The position numbers and the translations under genes were made by a program. The notes beneath the pieces were generated by a model. That model was not told where the DNA came from, made no database searches, and saw nothing but the letters and a program-made list of their open reading frames with translations. This document shows, one piece after another, positions 11,699 through 54,098 of a DNA stretch of 64,000 nucleotides. How positions within the stretch are numbered: the stretch's first letter is position 1; every line of letters starts with the position of its first letter. This DNA is from Bacteroidales bacterium UBA1176. GTDB taxonomy: Bacteria; Bacteroidota; Bacteroidia; Bacteroidales; WCHB1-69. The stretch lies in NCBI GenBank assembly GCA_002311645.1, contig DBYW01000035.1, forward strand, positions 26,306 to 90,305. Reading direction: 5' to 3'.

Positions 11699-13462
11699 CT
11701 ATTTCACAACAATTTTCTTCGTAACACTGTTGTTCACACGCACCATGTATGTGCCGACAGACCAGTTGCGGACATCCACATCGTATTCGCTTTCCATTCC
11801 TTTTGCAGACCACACCATTTTGCCATTCATGTCGAAAACCTCGACGCAATTGATTGCATCGCCAGTGACTTTCAAATAATCAGAGGCAGGATTGGGATAG
11901 AGAGAAATGTGCATGATCTGGTTTTCGTCAATACCGACAGTGTGGAATGAGACAGAGACATCAAGGACATTCTCTTGATTGGTGATATCATTGGAATAGA
12001 GCGCAATGTGGGCTGTCTTGGTACACTCGGCAGGATGATCCGGGTTGACAAATGTTATGGTCTCCGTGACTTGTCCGCCCGCATTGATGGTGCCAGACGG
12101 GGAGGAAACGGTTATCCAGGGTTCGATGGGGGTGCCGTCGACAATGGCGGAAAGCATCCAGTTGCCTGTAAGGTCGGGATTGCCATTGAGTTCATTCCAC
12201 GCCACACCCGTCTTGTACCAGTTGCCATACGGATGTGGTGTGACGGCGTCGTCGAGCCCGATGGAGGGAAGGGTAGTTTGCGTCGGATCCTGCTCATAAT
12301 AGATGCCGAACCAGAAATCGCGACCGTTCAGCACGTATGGAGTGGTGAGATTGATTGTATTCACGCCCTCCACAGGGACAAAATTCTGTTCATAGACCAT
12401 ATCGCCAGGGCCATCGACCAAAATGCCTCCCATGTCGTAGATGCGAATCTTAGCAACGTTTATATAGTCGCTATTATTGATGGACACATTAATGGCATTG
12501 ATTTGCTTGCCTACCAGGTCCATGGACACGACCTCCTCGGCGGTGAATCCTGCGGCCACCTGGATAGCTTCCGTGTTGTTGAAGAGCACACCCGTGTACT
12601 CCGTTCCGGCGCGGGTAAGCTCCTGCGATCCCGTTGACGTGGTGTTGGGAGTGAACTCGTAATACGGCACCAGGCGATAGTTGACGGGAGCGCCGCCAGG
12701 ATTGCTCAGCGTCAGGGCATAGGTGCCTGTTGCGGCATTGTCCACCGTCACATTGATGTCGCTGGTCGGAGAGAAGGAGAACTGCCCGTCATTGGCCGAG
12801 GTGATCTCCGTAAAGACAAAATTGTCCACATAATAGGTTCCTGTTGCATTGTTGGGAGCTCCCGCATAAAAATTGATGGAACCCAACTGGTTGATACCGT
12901 TTGCGCTATTGGATTCGTTGGAGAAAGGCCATGACTGCACCACCACATTGTTGACAGTCATCGTGATGAGATCCTGGTCAAGATCAATGTGAGCCTTGAC
13001 GTGGAACCAGGCATTGTTGGGCATTGTGAAGTTGTAGGTCGTGCCAGCCACGCTGAAATAACCAGTTCCAGAGGTGGTGAAATAGCATTCGAACGCCCAT
13101 TGCACGCCCGGGTTGTAGTAGTGCTGGATGTTGAAATAGGCACCACTGCCGGTGGTCGGGACATAGTAGTCGAAATCAACATCGAACACACCCGTGGTCT
13201 GATTGGAAAACCGGTAGATGATGTCGTTGGTACCGGTCACCTTCAAGGAGTTGGAGCCACTGGAGGCCTGTTCCGTGGAGATGACGGCATCCTCGGCCGT
13301 GCCGGGAGCATTGCTCCACGTGGTCCAGTCCGTGTTGTTCTGCGAGCAGAGTTGCTGTCCAGCCGTGTAGGAATCGAAGTTGTCACTGAAGACAACGGTC
13401 TGCGCCTGCAATGCGGCCATCATACCGCACATCAGACATACAAAAAATAAAAATTTCTTCAT
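11699..13462 (-). CDS. Secreted protein with T9SS type-A C-terminal sorting domain (probable lectin/LamG-like N-terminal domain)
   Basis: The signal peptide is MKKFLFFVCLMCGMMAALQAQ. The C-terminal ~75 aa LYPNPASDYLKV...GTYMVRVNN...KIVVK matches the Por secretion tail. An alternative ATG lies at 13471. Confidence 0.7.
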   Translation of the reverse strand: MKKFLFFVCLMCGMMAALQAQTVVFSDNFDSYTAGQQLCSQNNTDWTTWSNAPGTAEDAVISTEQASSGSNSLKVTGTNDIIYRFSNQTTGVFDVDFDYYVPTTGSGAYFNIQHYYNPGVQWAFECYFTTSGTGYFSVAGTTYNFTMPNNAWFHVKAHIDLDQDLITMTVNNVVVQSWPFSNESNSANGINQLGSINFYAGAPNNATGTYYVDNFVFTEITSANDGQFSFSPTSDINVTVDNAATGTYALTLSNPGGAPVNYRLVPYYEFTPNTTSTGSQELTRAGTEYTGVLFNNTEAIQVAAGFTAEEVVSMDLVGKQINAINVSINNSDYINVAKIRIYDMGGILVDGPGDMVYEQNFVPVEGVNTINLTTPYVLNGRDFWFGIYYEQDPTQTTLPSIGLDDAVTPHPYGNWYKTGVAWNELNGNPDLTGNWMLSAIVDGTPIEPWITVSSPSGTINAGGQVTETITFVNPDHPAECTKTAHIALYSNDITNQENVLDVSVSFHTVGIDENQIMHISLYPNPASDYLKVTGDAINCVEVFDMNGKMVWSAKGMESEYDVDVRNWSVGTYMVRVNNSVTKKIVVK

Positions 13463-13532
13463 AACATACAATTTTAGTTTGACATTAGTTTTGCTTATTT
13501 TCTTGTTTTAACCTTTTTTACAAAAGATGCCG

Positions 13533-13540
13533 CAAACATA
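13533..13540 (-). promoter_or_regulatory. -7 element (TATGTTTG on minus strand) for the CTD-protein gene
   Basis: CAAACATA on the plus strand, 61-70 nt upstream of the start. Confidence 0.45.
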
Positions 13541-13635
13541 CATAATTTAATCCATACGCGCAAGGGCTAACCGTGAAAAAAAGTTAAAAAACATCATTGT
13601 TCCACAACACTCCCCTGCTATATCAGGGAAAAAAG

Positions 13636-13643
13636 TATTTTTG
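13636..13643 (+). promoter_or_regulatory. -7 element TATTTTTG for the lipoprotein-rSAM operon
   Basis: GGGAAAAAAGTATTTTTGCC, 16 nt upstream of ATG 13660. Confidence 0.6.
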
Positions 13644-13659
13644 CCAAAATTTAAAAACA

Positions 13660-14067
13660 ATGTTGTCAAAACTAAAAGAGAAGAAAAGAGCGTGGAAACG
13701 CGCCTTGTTCGGCTCCTTCGCCGCCACATCCGTCATGTTCACTTTCTGCGCCTGCTACGGCATGCCAAAGGAATACATTAATTTAGATGAAATAAGCGGT
13801 ACGGTCGTCGATGCCGAGACCGGCAGTCCCGTAGCTGGAGTGCAGGTGCAGTCCAGAGGGTTGATAGATGCCATCACCGACAGCACCGGCTATTTTGTCG
13901 ATTCCACCGACAGGACTGTGGATTCATGGCAGCCGATAGACTTCGCCGTTCGCGACATTGACGGTGCCGAGAACGGAATCTATGAAGACTTGGACACTTC
14001 CGTACTTGCTGCCGACCTTCTCTCACCCCTGCATTTGCAGGTCAAGCCGAAACACGATGACCGATAA
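13660..14067 (+). CDS. Radical-SAM-associated putative lipoprotein (carboxypeptidase-regulatory-like fold)
   Basis: ATG at 13660 lies 16 nt after a -7 promoter element. 135 aa with signal plus lipobox (MFTFCACYGMP) and ISGTVVDAETGSPVAGVQVQ. Its stop overlaps the rSAM gene start by 11 nt. Confidence 0.65.
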   Translation: MLSKLKEKKRAWKRALFGSFAATSVMFTFCACYGMPKEYINLDEISGTVVDAETGSPVAGVQVQSRGLIDAITDSTGYFVDSTDRTVDSWQPIDFAVRDIDGAENGIYEDLDTSVLAADLLSPLHLQVKPKHDDR

Positions 14068-15109
14068 AAGGCCTCTCAGGCGCTGGCTGTTCCGCAGTTT
14101 CAGGAAAAACGAGACGGAGATCCACGAGCTGAACTATCTCTTTTGGGAGTGCACATGGCGCTGCAATCTCTCGTGTCGCCATTGCGGATCCGACTGCAAG
14201 GCGGACGCCATAGCATCCGACATGCCCTTCCAAGACTTCCTGAGAGCCATCGAGCCTTTGGAACAGCGCTATCCCCGCGACACGGTCATCATTGCCATCA
14301 CAGGTGGGGAGCCGCTGTTGCGCCCTGATTTGGCGGAATGCGGACGGCAGTTGCGAGAGCACGGTTTCCGCTGGGGTATCGTTTCCAACGGAATGTTGTA
14401 CGATGAATCTCGTCACCGTGAACTCTTAGCGGCTGGTCTCAACTCCGTCACCATCAGCTTGGACGGACTTGAAGAGACGCACAACTGGCTGCGTGGCAAC
14501 CTGCAGAGTTTCCAGCGAGCCTTAGCCGCCCTCAAGCTCATCGCCGCCACCCCGCAGCTCGCCTACGATGTGGTGACCTGCGTACATCCCCGCAACCTGT
14601 CGGTCCTGCCAGCACTCAAGGAGATCCTCCTCGCCAACGGCATCCAGCACTGGCGCTTGTTCACCATCGCCCCCATCGGACGCGCCACACAAGACGACAA
14701 CCTGCAACTTTCCCGCCCGCAAGTCGAACAGATGCTGCAATTCATCGCCGACACCCGCAAGGAGGGGCACATCGACCTTTCATTCAGTTGCGAGGCCTAT
14801 ACGGGCAAATACGAGGAAAACATCCGTAACAGCTACTTCTTCTGCCGTGCTGGAATCAACATCGGCAGCGTCCTGATAAACGGTGACATCTGCGCCTGCC
14901 CCAACGTGAACCGTTCCTACGTGCAAGGCAACATCTACCACGACAACCTCCTGGATGTCTGGGACAACAGATTCCAGGTCATGCGCGACCGGCAATGGAT
15001 GAAACGCGGTCCCTGCGAGCATTGCAAGGAGTTCAAGCAATGCCTCGGCGGAGCCTTACACCTCCGCCCAAATCCAACAAGCGACATATTAAGATGCTAT
15101 CGTTTCTAA
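14057..15109 (+). CDS. Radical SAM / SPASM-domain enzyme (lipoprotein-associated family)
   Basis: ATG at 14057. 350 aa. The CxxxCxxC motif is CNLSCRHC. The C-terminal Cys cluster (FFCRAG...GDICACP...CEHCKEFKQC) is typical of SPASM/twitch auxiliary clusters. Confidence 0.8.
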   Translation: MTDKRPLRRWLFRSFRKNETEIHELNYLFWECTWRCNLSCRHCGSDCKADAIASDMPFQDFLRAIEPLEQRYPRDTVIIAITGGEPLLRPDLAECGRQLREHGFRWGIVSNGMLYDESRHRELLAAGLNSVTISLDGLEETHNWLRGNLQSFQRALAALKLIAATPQLAYDVVTCVHPRNLSVLPALKEILLANGIQHWRLFTIAPIGRATQDDNLQLSRPQVEQMLQFIADTRKEGHIDLSFSCEAYTGKYEENIRNSYFFCRAGINIGSVLINGDICACPNVNRSYVQGNIYHDNLLDVWDNRFQVMRDRQWMKRGPCEHCKEFKQCLGGALHLRPNPTSDILRCYRF

Positions 15110-15170
15110 CCCGTTAATTGCCCTTTTAACTTTTAATATTTTTTAAGACGCACAGTTGTTCATTTTTTTT

Positions 15171-15178
15171 TACTTTTG
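15171..15178 (+). promoter_or_regulatory. -7 element TACTTTTG for mini-lipoprotein A
   Basis: Preceded by a T-run, 38 nt upstream of ATG 15217. Confidence 0.5.
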
Positions 15179-15216
15179 CCACATCAAAATTCATTAACCC
15201 ATAAAGTTTTGAAATT

Positions 15217-15444
15217 ATGAAAAAAATTATTTGCGTATGCGCTGCCTGCCTCATGATGGCGGCCCTCACAACCTCCTGCAACAAAAGATGCGAATGCAAG
15301 TCCTACCTCGCCGGACATGTGACCACGACGGAATTCGATCTTGACAAAGACAACTACAAAAAATGTTCCGACATGAACATTACCACGACAGAGATCAACG
15401 GCACCATCATGACGGGCATGGAATGCCGGAGTGTTTTGTTTTAA
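15217..15444 (+). CDS. Cys-patterned mini-lipoprotein, paralog A
   Basis: 75 aa. Signal plus lipobox LTTSC. Cys at 21, 25, 27, 50 and 70. Own TACTTTTG promoter. Confidence 0.6.
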   Translation: MKKIICVCAACLMMAALTTSCNKRCECKSYLAGHVTTTEFDLDKDNYKKCSDMNITTTEINGTIMTGMECRSVLF

Positions 15445-15473
15445 TTTTTTTTCCTTCCATATTAAAAAAAATG

Positions 15474-15481
15474 TATTTTTG
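15474..15481 (+). promoter_or_regulatory. -7 element TATTTTTG (strong-cassette variant) for mini-lipoprotein B
   Basis: AAAAAAAATGTATTTTTGCCGCG, 34 nt upstream of ATG 15516. Confidence 0.65.
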
Positions 15482-15515
15482 CCGCGAATTTAGTACTAAC
15501 TTAAAAACCTTAAAA

Positions 15516-15755
15516 ATGAAAAAATTAATGGCTATTTGCGCTGCAACTTTGATGTTGGCAGCTGTTGCAAGCTCTTGCAGCAAGATTTGTACCTGCACTG
15601 TTGAATACGGTATTGGTGGCAGTACTGTGTCTACCACTCTTAATGACATTGACCTGAAAGGCACCAGTTACAAGAACTGCAACGCTTACGGTGATGCTTT
15701 GCAAGCCACCTACAACATGTACAGCGATGTCAAAATTGACTGCAAGAAACAATAA
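15516..15755 (+). CDS. Cys-patterned mini-lipoprotein, paralog B
   Basis: 79 aa, starting at the internal ATG 15516. Signal plus lipobox VASSC. Cys at 21, 25, 27, 55 and 76. It has a strong promoter cassette upstream and a hairpin terminator downstream. Confidence 0.65.
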   Translation: MKKLMAICAATLMLAAVASSCSKICTCTVEYGIGGSTVSTTLNDIDLKGTSYKNCNAYGDALQATYNMYSDVKIDCKKQ

Positions 15756-15776
15756 TTTTTTGCATTCGGAAACCAA

Positions 15777-15803
15777 AAGCCCCTCAATCAGGGGCTTTTT
15801 TTA
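15777..15803 (+). terminator. Intrinsic terminator after mini-lipoprotein B
   Basis: Stem AAGCCCCT / AGGGGCTT, loop CAATC, then a T-run. Confidence 0.75.
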
Positions 15804-15809
15804 TTTTTG
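15802..15809 (+). promoter_or_regulatory. -7 element TATTTTTG for rimO(-hydF)
   Basis: 23 nt upstream of ATG 15833. Confidence 0.55.
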
Positions 15810-15832
15810 CACCCCCTTACAAAACATCGGCT

Positions 15833-17110
15833 ATGACCATCAACATCATCACTTTGGGATGCTCCAAGAACATCGTCGACTCGGAAGTGTTAGCCGCCCA
15901 ACTGCAGAAGCAGGGGCACCAACTCCTCTTCGAAAGCGCCATGCGCAGCGACATCGTGATTCTCAACACCTGCAGCTTCATTGGAGACGCACGCGAGGAG
16001 TCCGTGGACGAGATTCTGCAGCAACTGGAACGCAAACACCGCGGCCAGGTCAAGAAAGTCTACGTGGTGGGCTGCCTTGCCCAACGCAGCAAGGACGAGT
16101 TAGCGGAGGCCCTGCCCGAAGTGGACGGTATCTTCACCTTCGCGGAGCTGCGCAACCTCGTACAGAAGAACGACTTTCAGCTGTTGGGGACCTCCGAGCG
16201 ACTGCTCTCCACCCCGAAGCATTACGCCTATCTGAAAGTCTCGGAGGGTTGCGACCACCAATGCTCCTACTGCGCCATCCCGCTCATTCGTGACCGTCAG
16301 GTCTCCAAGCCGATTCCGCTATTGGTAGAAGAGGCCCACAAGCTCGCCGACGAGGGCGTCAAGGAGGTGATGCTCATCGCCCAAGACCTCACCTACTACG
16401 GTATAGACCTCACCGGCAAGCGCGAGCTCGCCCCGCTGATGGAGGCTCTCGCGGAAGTGCGCGGCATCGAGTGGATACGCCTGCACTACGCCTACCCGCT
16501 CAACTTCCCCTTCGAGATCCTTGACGTGATGAACCGGCACCCGCAATATTGCCATTACCTCGACATCCCCATCCAGCACATCAGCGACGAGATTCTCAAG
16601 AGCATGCGACGCGGCGGCAGCGCGGCCTACATTTACGACATGGTGGCCCGCATCCGTGAAACCGTGCCCGACATAGCCCTGCGCACCACCCTCATCTCCG
16701 GATATCCCACCGAAACCCGCGAACAGCACCAGGAGCTGGTCGAGTTTGTGCGCAAGACACGATTCGACCGCCTCGGGGTCTTCACCTACTCACAAGAGGA
16801 GGACACGCCCGCCTTTCCACTCGGAGACCCCATCAAGGCTTCCGAAAAAAACCGCCGCCAGCGCGAGATCATGCGACTGCAGGAGAAAATCTCCCAGGAG
16901 CTCAACCAAGCCAAGGTGGGCAAAACTTTCAAAGTCATCATCGACAACGAGGAACAGGATGCCTACGTGGGCCGCACCGAATACGACTCCCCCGACGTGG
17001 ACAACTGCGTACTCATTTCCAAGACAAAAGCCCTTACCATCGGAGATTTCTACCAAGTGCGCATCACCGAGGCCGGGCCATACGATCTTTTCGGCGAGGT
17101 GTTTTCGTAA
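15833..17110 (+). CDS. rimO: Ribosomal protein S12 methylthiotransferase RimO
   Basis: 425 aa. The N-terminus reads INIITLGCSKNIVDSE. The radical SAM motif is CDHQCSYCAIP, and the C-terminus is TRAM-like. Confidence 0.85.
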   Translation: MTINIITLGCSKNIVDSEVLAAQLQKQGHQLLFESAMRSDIVILNTCSFIGDAREESVDEILQQLERKHRGQVKKVYVVGCLAQRSKDELAEALPEVDGIFTFAELRNLVQKNDFQLLGTSERLLSTPKHYAYLKVSEGCDHQCSYCAIPLIRDRQVSKPIPLLVEEAHKLADEGVKEVMLIAQDLTYYGIDLTGKRELAPLMEALAEVRGIEWIRLHYAYPLNFPFEILDVMNRHPQYCHYLDIPIQHISDEILKSMRRGGSAAYIYDMVARIRETVPDIALRTTLISGYPTETREQHQELVEFVRKTRFDRLGVFTYSQEEDTPAFPLGDPIKASEKNRRQREIMRLQEKISQELNQAKVGKTFKVIIDNEEQDAYVGRTEYDSPDVDNCVLISKTKALTIGDFYQVRITEAGPYDLFGEVFS

Positions 17111-26773: not shown

Positions 26774-28183
26774 ATGACTGATTACGAATTGAAAAACAAA
26801 GTGGCCGATATGTCGTTGGCCGACTGGGGCCGCAAGGACATTGACGTTTCACAAAAAGAGATGCCCGGCCTGTTAGCGCTGAGAGAAAAATATGGCGACA
26901 CCAAGCCCCTGAATGGTGTGCGCATCATGGGTTCGCTGCACATGACCATCCAAACCGCCGTCCTGATCGAGACGTTAGTGCATCTGGGTGCAGAAGTGCG
27001 CTGGTGCAGTTGCAACATCTTCTCCACACAGGACCACGCAGCCGCGGCTATCGCTGCCACGGGCGTATCTGTGTTCGCCTGGAAGGGCGAAACCCTTGAA
27101 GACTATTGGTGGTGCACCAACCAGGCCCTATCGTTCCCCGGCGGCAAAGGCCCGCAACTCATCGTGGACGACGGCGGCGACGCAACCCTGCTCATCCACC
27201 TTGGCTACAAGGCGGAAGAAGATCCCACCATCCTCGACAAGACCCCCGAGAACCACGAACAAGCTGTCATCTTCCATACCCTCAAGGAGATTTTGAAAGA
27301 AGACCCGCACAAATGGCATAACATGGTCAAGGAAATCAAGGGCGTCTCTGAAGAGACCACCACGGGCGTACACCGTCTCTACCAAATGATGGAGCGCGGT
27401 GAGCTGCTCTTCCCCGCCATCAATGTCAACGACTCCGTCACGAAGTCCAAGTTCGACAACAAATACGGCTGCCGCGAGTCCTTGGCCGACGGCATCAAGC
27501 GTGCCACCGACATCATGCTCGCCGGCAAGGTGGTGTGCGTGTGCGGCTATGGTGACGTGGGCAAAGGCTGTGCTCAGTCCATGAAATCCTACGGTGCACG
27601 TGTCATCGTCACTGAAGTCGACCCCATCTGTGCATTGCAGGCCGCCATGGAAGGCTTTGAGGTTAAGACTGTGGAGGACGCCCTCCCCGAAGCCAACCTC
27701 TATGTCACCACCACTGGCAACTGCGATGTCATCACCGTGGAACACCTCAACAAGATGAAGGACCAGGCCATCGTCTGCAACATCGGACACTTCGACAACG
27801 AAATCCAAGTGAGTGCATTTGAACGCCAGCCCGGCATCACCAAGCGCAACATCAAGCCGCAAGTTGACGAGTACATTTTCCCCGACGGGCACTCCATCTT
27901 CATCTTGGCGGAAGGCCGCTTAGTGAACCTCGGATGCGCCACGGGACATCCCTCTTTCGTCATGAGCAACTCCTTCACCAATCAGACCATGGCACAACTC
28001 GACCTGTGGCAACACGACTACAAGGTCGGTGTTTACAACCTGCCCAAGGAACTGGACGAAGAGGTCGCCCGCCTGCATCTCGGCAAGATCGGAGCCAAGC
28101 TCACCAAACTCACCCAGAAGCAGGCCGACTACATCGGCGTTCCTATCGACGGTCCGTTCAAATCAGATTTCTATCGATACTAA
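26774..28183 (+). CDS. ahcY: Adenosylhomocysteinase
   Basis: 469 aa with DDGGDAT, the NAD site GYGDVGKG, and HFDNEI. Confidence 0.95.
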
Positions 28184-28186
28184 CCA

Positions 28187-28212
28187 AAATCCCGCAGAAA
28201 TGCGGGATTTTT
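28187..28212. terminator. Intrinsic terminator after ahcY (usable from both strands)
   Basis: Stem AAATCCCGCA / TGCGGGATTT, loop GAAA, with a T-run on both strands. Confidence 0.8.
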
Positions 28213-28266
28213 CATATAAAGCCCGAGCTCAACTGCACGGATATCCGATGATGTCCAGCTATAGGA

Positions 28267-28677
28267 TCACCTTACCGCCACAAACAACACCTCTTGGTAG
28301 TCACCGCTTATGGCCCGCAAGCGACAGACCTCCCCGGAGTGGTAGAGCGTGTCGCTGAAAGACATACTGAACACCGCAGTCAGCACTCTCCCATTTCCAT
28401 AAGTATCCGTGATCCAGTGGAAATTCTCATCACCATCGTGCAACTCCATAGTATAACCTGGCGGCTGTTGCCAGTAGAATCGCCAATCCTCACCTGAGTT
28501 GATCGCTTCGACACCTATTTCCTGATAGGTGTTCAAGGACACTGTCACAGTGTCAGCTGTGATTTCCTGACCATCCATATAAAACCGCACATCAGAATTC
28601 GGACGTTGCCATGGCCATTCACATGACACAAGACCGATGGTCATTACCAACAAAATCAACAAACCAATTTTCTTCAT
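28267..28677 (-). CDS. Hypothetical lipoprotein
   Basis: 136 aa starting MKKIGLLILLVMTIGLVSC (lipobox). I recognise no domain. Confidence 0.5.
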   Translation of the reverse strand: MKKIGLLILLVMTIGLVSCEWPWQRPNSDVRFYMDGQEITADTVTVSLNTYQEIGVEAINSGEDWRFYWQQPPGYTMELHDGDENFHWITDTYGNGRVLTAVFSMSFSDTLYHSGEVCRLRAISGDYQEVLFVAVR

Positions 28678-37403: not shown

Positions 37404-37514
37404 TGATTTTTATTCGAAACAAAGCGCGTTTTTTTTTCAAAGATTCTTTAACTTTATTGGATTTTTCTTGTCAATAAAAATTTTGAAGACGGGCAGGTAC
37501 ATATAAAAAAAGTG

Positions 37515-53909: not shown

Positions 53910-54098
53910 GATTGGTTTTCAGTATATAATCTCTGGGGATCGCGACATAGATATGAATTGTGTGAAATTTAGGCTATGCCATCAACAAGGGTGACGGGGG
54001 TTGAAGAAATGTAACAATAATATATTCCACTAAAATTCAACAACATACAAACATCAAAAAAAATATTTCAGAAACTGACGGAGTATTGAAAAAAAGTG

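Follow-up and report, generated by a model that had tools for sequence, protein, structure and literature searches.

A tandem pair of four-cysteine mini-lipoproteins upstream of rimO in Bacteroidales bacterium UBA1176 appears to belong to an unnamed family that accompanies a MauE-thioredoxin fusion rather than the neighbouring radical SAM enzyme

The window analysed here is a 64,000-nucleotide (nt) stretch of DNA from Bacteroidales bacterium UBA1176 (contig DBYW01000035.1, positions 26,306 to 90,305 of the forward strand), and it carries two small genes in tandem between a radical SAM (rSAM)/SPASM gene and rimO. The first, mini-lipoprotein A (15217..15444, + strand), is an open reading frame (ORF) of 75 amino acids (aa), recognised by its homology to the second and by a family profile (E = 1.4e-19). 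The second, mini-lipoprotein B (15516..15755, + strand), is an ORF of 79 aa that matches the same profile at E = 2e-14 and has relatives at 92% and 68% identity. The ORF list also has a longer frame, from 15363, which extends B upstream and overlaps the 3' end of A; the start of B was set at 15516 because its homologues start at MKKLMAI. Both ORFs had been described, with these lengths, in an earlier sequence-only reading of the window, which proposed that they encode abundant surface or periplasmic lipoproteins and candidate substrates of the adjacent SPASM enzyme. The two ORFs are present on the + strand as described; the proposals about their location and their partner are weighed below.

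A and B are paralogous, with a BLASTP E-value of 8e-11 and 41% identity across the first 56 residues. Each begins with a signal peptide made up of an MKK n-region, a hydrophobic core and a lipobox, which reads LTTSC in A and VASSC in B. The cysteines of A are C21 (lipobox), C25, C27, C50 and C70, and those of B are C21 (lipobox), C25, C27, C55 and C76, exactly the positions given earlier. The Y-K-(K/N)-C motif that had been noted around the fourth cysteine is found in both A and B, but it does not extend to the family as a whole, since some members retain the cysteine alone. With the lipobox in place, both proteins are predicted to be bacterial lipoproteins, lipidated and processed as substrates of Lgt and LspA. 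The signal peptide, MKKLMAICAATLMLAGVATSC (15217-15279 and 15516-15578), is the most conserved part of the close family, and it stays near-identical where the mature parts share only 40-50% identity, something that is unusual for a cleaved signal.

A search of 1.84 billion cluster representatives with the mini-lipoprotein profile matched 197 clusters (50% identity) at E <= 0.001, all of proteins of ~60-95 aa. Of 148 cluster representatives, 130 show the pattern C-x3-C-x-C followed by exactly two later cysteines. When 104 diverse members are aligned, only the five cysteine columns are invariant; the Ser ahead of the lipid-carrying Cys and the Lys at the second position beyond it are each conserved in at least 90%. 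A and B show the full family pattern (65-80 aa, lipobox Cys, C-x3-C-x-C and exactly two further Cys) and, judged on this pattern, are members of a large unnamed Bacteroidales family of about 65-80 aa. Scans of A, B and the 104 relatives against Pfam and NCBIfam returned no model for the family, and a cluster look-up of ten diverse members gave no functional name, the sole recorded name being 'hypothetical protein'. The genomes with relatives that carry a name are mostly from ruminants, with one from human gut, and are labelled Bacteroidales or Bacteroidetes, with one labelled Oscillospiraceae. The small size of A and B is the only feature that would speak for chance or unexpressed reading frames. 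That explanation has a practically negligible probability and is contradicted by full-length conservation in hundreds of clusters with invariant cysteines, and the two genes also have their own promoter and terminator and a confident fold prediction.

Several named lipoprotein families were considered as possible homes for A and B. Sub-threshold matches to BamI/BamK, ExtJ, LptM and other models were rejected as driven mostly by the signal peptide. The PG1828 family (NF050142) shares with the mini-lipoproteins a small size, a Bacteroidales host and a very similar MKK...SC signal peptide, and its model gave weak matches in 34 of the 104 family members. It was nevertheless rejected: A and B do not match the model, single relatives reach at most 27 bits against a cut-off of 50 bits, and the weak matches mostly span little more than the signal peptide and the first mature residues. 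True PG1828 members, unlike the mini-lipoproteins, are rich in Ala, Thr, Val and Asp and have no Cys after the lipobox.

The gene neighbourhoods of the family outside this genus point to a specific partner. Among the genes flanking 20 family loci from outside the genus, Pfam MauE was the family met most often, in the form of proteins of ~300-314 aa with an N-terminal MauE domain. Their alignment has as invariants Lys27, Glu60, a C-H-C-x-G motif, a C-terminal C-x-x-C and a later Pro, and their weak profile matches in the PDB were to thioredoxin-fold proteins in 12 of 12 cases, aligned at the CxxC. These proteins are referred to here as MauE-thioredoxin (MauE-Trx) fusions. The fusion gene lies directly beside the mini-lipoprotein gene or genes in 17 of 23 loci from other taxonomic families of the order. 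Across an order-level sample of 201 genomes, one or two per taxonomic family, the mini-lipoprotein was found in 30 and full-length MauE-Trx in 33. Of the 201, 26 had both, 4 had only the mini-lipoprotein, 7 had only MauE-Trx and 164 lacked both (odds ratio 152). In 18 of the 26 genomes with both, the genes are neighbours, and adjacent pairs mostly have the mini-lipoprotein first and MauE-Trx second on the same strand, a few tens to ~230 nt apart. This genome (G000 in our sample) encodes one full-length MauE-Trx (contig C49:7885-8808; E = 1.6e-129) with both the CHC and the CxxC motif, and some species within its genus have an additional mini-lipoprotein copy next to MauE-Trx.

The recognition of MauE as a DsbB-like oxidase is very recent: in E. 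coli, MauE proteins can take the place of DsbB (Gonzalez et al., 2026, bioRxiv 10.64898/2026.03.05.709764). The active site is a CXC ahead of a conserved Phe-Gly, the first two helices contain a conserved Lys and Glu, and fusions to a thioredoxin-family domain make up 8.2% of MauE entries; the preprint contains no mention of Bacteroidota or of lipoproteins (10.64898/2026.03.05.709764). The arrangement in Bacteroidales resembles the MauE/MauD system in that a Cys-rich exported protein is encoded beside a MauE-type membrane oxidase with a thioredoxin-fold partner, and the fusions carry a CXC-(F/M)-G site together with the published conserved Lys and Glu. There are also clear differences. The classic client of MauE/MauD is the six-disulfide small subunit of methylamine dehydrogenase (MauA), whereas the client here would be a lipoprotein of 55-59 residues with four cysteines, from an unnamed family and not MauA. 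None of the loci examined has mau genes beside it, the host organisms are Bacteroidales that live anaerobically in rumen and gut, and in this genome the enzyme and lipoprotein genes are unlinked.

Since the family travels with MauE-Trx, the cysteines of A and B most likely form ordinary disulfides. Two potential disulfides had already been noted from the sequence, and four cysteines after the lipobox are indeed present in both of these small proteins. The AlphaFold2 model of B, made from a 33-sequence alignment, has a predicted local distance difference test (pLDDT) score of ~85 over the mature part, with strands at 24-33 and 36-46 forming a beta-hairpin, a helix at 55-65 and a strand at 73-78. 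The model of A (mature part pLDDT ~71-84) has a beta-hairpin at 24-41 and a second hairpin at 55-73. Both models place the C-x-C in the first strand; of the two later cysteines, one opens the middle element and the other is in the last strand, an arrangement consistent with pairing of the four cysteines into two structural disulfides. A Foldseek search of the PDB with the B model gave no match at E <= 0.001, and the top TM-score was ~0.4. The middle of the fold is predicted to differ between the two proteins, being a second beta-hairpin in A and a long helix in B. Within the family two types seem to exist on one cysteine scaffold, 'KNC.AY..AL' and 'KKCSDMN...G.EC'.

The residues that follow the lipid-carrying cysteine bear on where the proteins reside. 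The lipoprotein export signal of Bacteroidota is C-X-K-(D/E)2 (PMC5080379). A reads C-S-K-I-C and B reads C-N-K-R-C at this position, so the Lys is present and the acidic pair is absent, and surface exposure, which the sequence-only reading had allowed for, is unlikely. A and B are thus expected to be retained on the periplasmic side, because neither has the acidic surface-export signal.

On balance, A and B are probably disulfide-locked periplasmic lipoproteins, clients of the MauE-Trx oxidase and not linked to the rSAM enzyme; lipidation, periplasmic location, disulfides, oxidant and high expression are all inferred from the sequences and their genomic setting. In such a scheme the precursors of A and B would be exported by Sec, lipidated and cleaved at Cys21, and the mature chains, 55 aa long in A and 59 aa in B, would be held on the periplasmic side. 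The four remaining invariant cysteines would then be joined into two disulfides that lock a very small beta-rich fold. The oxidant would most likely be the MauE-Trx fusion, a membrane protein acting as a DsbB/DsbA-like module, which is encoded directly downstream of the mini-lipoproteins in most other Bacteroidales families and on another contig here.

Several observations weigh against this interpretation. The genomes in the order-level sample are related, so that the Fisher p-value exaggerates the association with MauE-Trx. Within the taxonomic family of this genome MauE-Trx is near-universal (136 of 151 genomes), which makes co-occurrence there uninformative. The MauE-Trx gene of this genome, on contig C49, adjoins none of the four family copies (the window lies on contig C23), and the link for A and B rests on their relatives. 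All relatives found come from uncultured metagenome-assembled genomes or from metagenomes. With no terminator between the rSAM gene and A, A could be partly co-transcribed with the rSAM gene in this genome. Finally, adjacency implies a functional link, yet the lipoprotein could be a partner or regulator of the enzyme and not a passive client.

This last point can be put as an explanation of its own, in which the mini-lipoproteins are redox-active or metal-binding partners of MauE-Trx. They might, for example, relay disulfides through a membrane-tethered C-x-C, buffer thiols or regulate the oxidase. In favour of such a role, the MauE active site has a motif of the same kind as the invariant C-x-C, the gene almost always precedes that of the enzyme and runs in the same direction, and the Lys beyond the lipid-carrying Cys is as widely conserved as described above. 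We nevertheless regard such a role as unlikely. Tandem sets of 2-4 fast-diverging copies ahead of one enzyme gene resemble clients more than a stoichiometric partner, some copies, among them those of this genome, lie at a distance from the enzyme gene and in unrelated surroundings, and the predicted position of the C-x-C in a beta-strand favours two structural disulfides.

The context of A and B within the window would at first sight suggest a different partner. A TIGR04134-like lipoprotein gene (13660..14067, + strand; 28 bits against the NCBIfam TIGR04134 cut-off of 39.8), for which the ATG at 13660 was picked because of its position downstream of a -7 element, overlaps the start of the radical SAM/SPASM gene. 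The latter (14057..15109, + strand) encodes a member of TIGR04133 (rSAM_w_lipo) with 473 bits against a cut-off of 425, and matches Pfam Radical_SAM and SPASM. Downstream of B is rimO (15833..17110, + strand; TIGR01125, 461 bits), the gene for the ribosomal protein S12 methylthiotransferase. The enzyme had been called an orphan in the sequence-only reading, a description that does not hold for a TIGR04133 member with a TIGR04134-like lipoprotein immediately upstream, and NCBIfam names the TIGR04134 lipoprotein as the partner of TIGR04133. A TIGR04134-like homologue was found by tblastn directly upstream of the rSAM gene in 47 of 77 loci, and went undetected by tblastn at 24 loci of a divergent, higher-scoring rSAM clade and at 6 others. 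A and B gave no match to TIGR04134 at E <= 1, and a search of the literature on TIGR04133/TIGR04134 and on small Cys-rich Bacteroidetes lipoproteins found nothing relevant.

The proposal that had been drawn from this context was that A and B are candidate substrates of the rSAM/SPASM enzyme, in the manner of QhpC and QhpD; the TIGR04133 enzyme would then add thioether or other cross-links to A and/or B before export. A starts 108 nt past the rSAM stop with no terminator between them, the order lipoprotein, rSAM, mini-lipoprotein recurs in 7 other genomes of the genus, and SPASM enzymes often act on Cys-rich peptides. The distribution of the two families argues strongly the other way. In 151 genomes of the same taxonomic family, searched with the mini-lipoprotein profile, the mini-lipoprotein was found in 122 and TIGR04133 in 64. 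The mini-lipoprotein is present in 52 of the 64 genomes with the rSAM gene (81%) and in 70 of the 87 without it (80%), giving an odds ratio of 1.05, so that the co-occurrence check suggested in the sequence-only reading shows no association, an outcome which that reading had itself named as refuting the link. In four genera (g14, g22, g9 and g15), 40 of 42 sampled genomes contain the mini-lipoprotein and none the rSAM gene, and two others (g17 and g20) show the reverse, with the rSAM gene in 7 of 8 sampled genomes and the mini-lipoprotein in none.

The adjacency of the two genes is equally restricted. Among 77 TIGR04133 loci (the window and 76 others) taken with flanks of 3 kilobases (kb), a mini-lipoprotein lies within 3 kb of the rSAM gene in 8 and is absent from 69. 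All 8 are in the genus of this genome, and all have the order lipoprotein, rSAM, mini-lipoprotein, rimO. The mini-lipoprotein is directly upstream of rimO in 22 of the best 29 loci of the genus, whether the rSAM gene is present or not, and in several genomes in which the rSAM gene is 9-12 kb away or on another contig, the mini-lipoprotein remains with rimO. In the closest relative (G128, RimO 95% identical) the order is a type IX secretion system (T9SS) protein, B (91% identical) and rimO, with no rSAM pair and no A. Two further genomes (G096 and G121) have the lipoprotein, the rSAM gene, A (80% identical) and rimO, with no B. From the 8 of 77 adjacent loci and the placement with rimO it follows that the neighbourhood is a variable slot ahead of rimO; the mini-lipoprotein gene would belong to the part just upstream of rimO, with the rSAM pair variably present in front. 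The slot between the gene for the T9SS-tagged protein and rimO (13400-15833) varies in content, holding lipoprotein, rSAM, A and B in this genome. A functional tie to rimO was considered and rejected, as the adjacency is confined to the genus and RimO stands beside the gene in none of 20 loci of other genera and families.

These results leave the idea that A and B are modified by the rSAM enzyme very improbable, and by distribution it is close to refuted; that A and B are not rSAM substrates can be held with high confidence. The usual upstream neighbour of the rSAM gene is the TIGR04134-like lipoprotein, and the conserved partner of the mini-lipoprotein family is a disulfide-forming enzyme. 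What the locus shares with QhpC/QhpD is that the gene of a small exported protein with cysteines lies close to that of a radical SAM enzyme with a SPASM domain. QhpC is obligately paired with QhpD, whereas the family of A and B and the rSAM family are phyletically independent and adjacent in one genus only. The locus does resemble the TIGR04133/TIGR04134 pair, with an rSAM protein above cut-off and a TIGR04134-like lipoprotein directly upstream, but A and B are no part of it, as they lack a TIGR04134 match and their family is missing from most such loci. That A and B lie near the rSAM gene is a chance result of how genes are ordered locally in one genus, and the caveat in the sequence-only reading that the link might be coincidental was well placed. 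A tempting lead is thereby removed, namely that A and B would be the substrate so far lacking for the uncharacterised TIGR04133 rSAM/SPASM family. Of more biological interest is the link to MauE oxidative folding, which in this window is only indirect.

The transcription signals around the two genes agree with those described in the sequence-only reading. TAnnTTTG is the -7 element of Bacteroidota promoters, and a scan for this pattern places a promoter-like element of A, TACTTTTG, at 15171..15178 (+ strand), ending 39 nt ahead of the ATG. The promoter cassette of B, AAAAAATGTATTTTTGCCGC (15466..15485, + strand), contains the -7 element TATTTTTG at 15474-15481, so that each gene has its own element, as had been stated. 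The likeness of the B cassette to housekeeping promoters was likewise borne out, its 20-mer recurring with 19 of 20 bases at 37507, 43941 and 45429 and with 17 of 20 at 54091, and no such match arising in 100 shuffles of the sequence. These sites are presumably upstream of ferredoxin, infC, rpsF and tRNA-Asp, of which the earlier reading had named the last three. B is followed by an intrinsic terminator (15775..15809, + strand), found by terminator scan and RNA folding, with a 10-bp stem, a 5-nt loop and a T-run; the hairpin (15775-15799) has a folding energy of -17.9 kcal/mol (z = -2.77), which bears out the clean terminator reported before.

Upstream, the TIGR04134-like lipoprotein/rSAM operon has a TAnnTTTG element at 13636-13643. 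No terminator-like hairpin was found from the rSAM stop to A, where the fold is no better than chance (z = -0.08), and read-through into A is therefore possible. To judge from these elements, A and B would each form a transcription unit of its own, that of B under a near-consensus and seemingly strong promoter. Going by the promoters, B is expected to be made in large amounts, and A probably is as well. The analysis places two probably abundant gene products in a large family that no public database names.

Some further details of these signals were noted. The lipoprotein/rSAM operon has a cassette-like promoter of its own, AAAAAAGTATTTTTGCCAAA (13627-13646), that is close to the housekeeping cassette. 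rimO is preceded by a TATTTTTG element at 15802-15809, and the T-run of the B terminator merges into it (15795-15809), so that ~15 bases would serve both to terminate B and to initiate rimO. A scan of 14900-16000 against Rfam gave only sub-threshold matches, which lay over the terminator.

Bacteroidota have long been thought to make few periplasmic disulfides, and we know of no natural MauE client described in the phylum. A lipoprotein of 55 residues, if locked by two disulfides, would offer a simple natural reporter of the MauE pathway. What the window itself contributes is an unlinked, strongly promoted pair and a clean negative for the rSAM link.

The family has four copies in this genome, namely A, B, C45:26884-27108 and C2:5206-5430, and tandem arrays of 2-4 copies are common in other genomes. 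This behaviour raises another possibility, that the mini-lipoproteins are tailored, fast-evolving lipopeptides that act outward, as antimicrobials, signals or vesicle cargo, with disulfides serving only for stability. Copy-number variation and tandem arrays would fit such a role, as would mature parts that diverge fast while the signal peptide and cysteines stay fixed, a strong promoter, and the APS kinase and sulfotransferase genes next to one of the paralogues here. It seems to us quite unlikely all the same, for A and B have no acidic lipoprotein export signal, and the place ahead of rimO is kept throughout the genus, unlike typical bacteriocin loci. No transporter, immunity gene or peptidase was found in the neighbourhood of A and B, which also speaks against it. 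A bolder view would make the mini-lipoproteins a new class of membrane-tethered C-x-C redox relays or of enzyme-tailored lipopeptides working with the MauE pathway of anaerobic Bacteroidales, the latter disulfide-locked and with some paralogues perhaps sulfated. We see this as speculative and improbable; were it true, the strongly promoted copies in the window would be the main cellular pool. The interpretation of A and B as MauE-Trx clients held in the periplasm is preferred to both.

The two paralogues outside the window have their own contexts. The third (G000 C45; 75 aa, SSCKKNCFC...KKEC...VNCTRQ) has a mature part rich in Tyr and acidic residues. An APS kinase gene (C45 27187-27807, + strand) starts 79 nt after it, and a Sulfotransfer_1 gene (27797-28645, - strand) converges on the kinase gene; this setting suggests that the paralogue may be sulfated. 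A search of 60 genomes from the taxonomic family gave no orthologue of the C45 paralogue at E <= 1e-8. The fourth (G000 C2:5206-5430; 75 aa, AGCKKTCHC...KGKC...IKCEQE) lies between genes for a small membrane protein and a T9SS-type secreted protein.

Other genomes show further arrangements of the family. A locus from another taxonomic family (L159, G239 C1:200858-202008) has four tandem copies, with seven in the genome, and the MauE-Trx gene of that genome is 620 kb from the array on the same contig. In genus g22 (L146, L152, L153 and L154) the mini-lipoprotein genes face a gene for a 140-aa RseC/MucC-like membrane protein, and in genus g14 (L148 and L150) a four-copy array is flanked by genes for a secreted thioredoxin and for a shorter protein that matches the MauE-Trx profile. 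The neighbours in g22 and g14 are further thiol-redox neighbours of the mini-lipoproteins.

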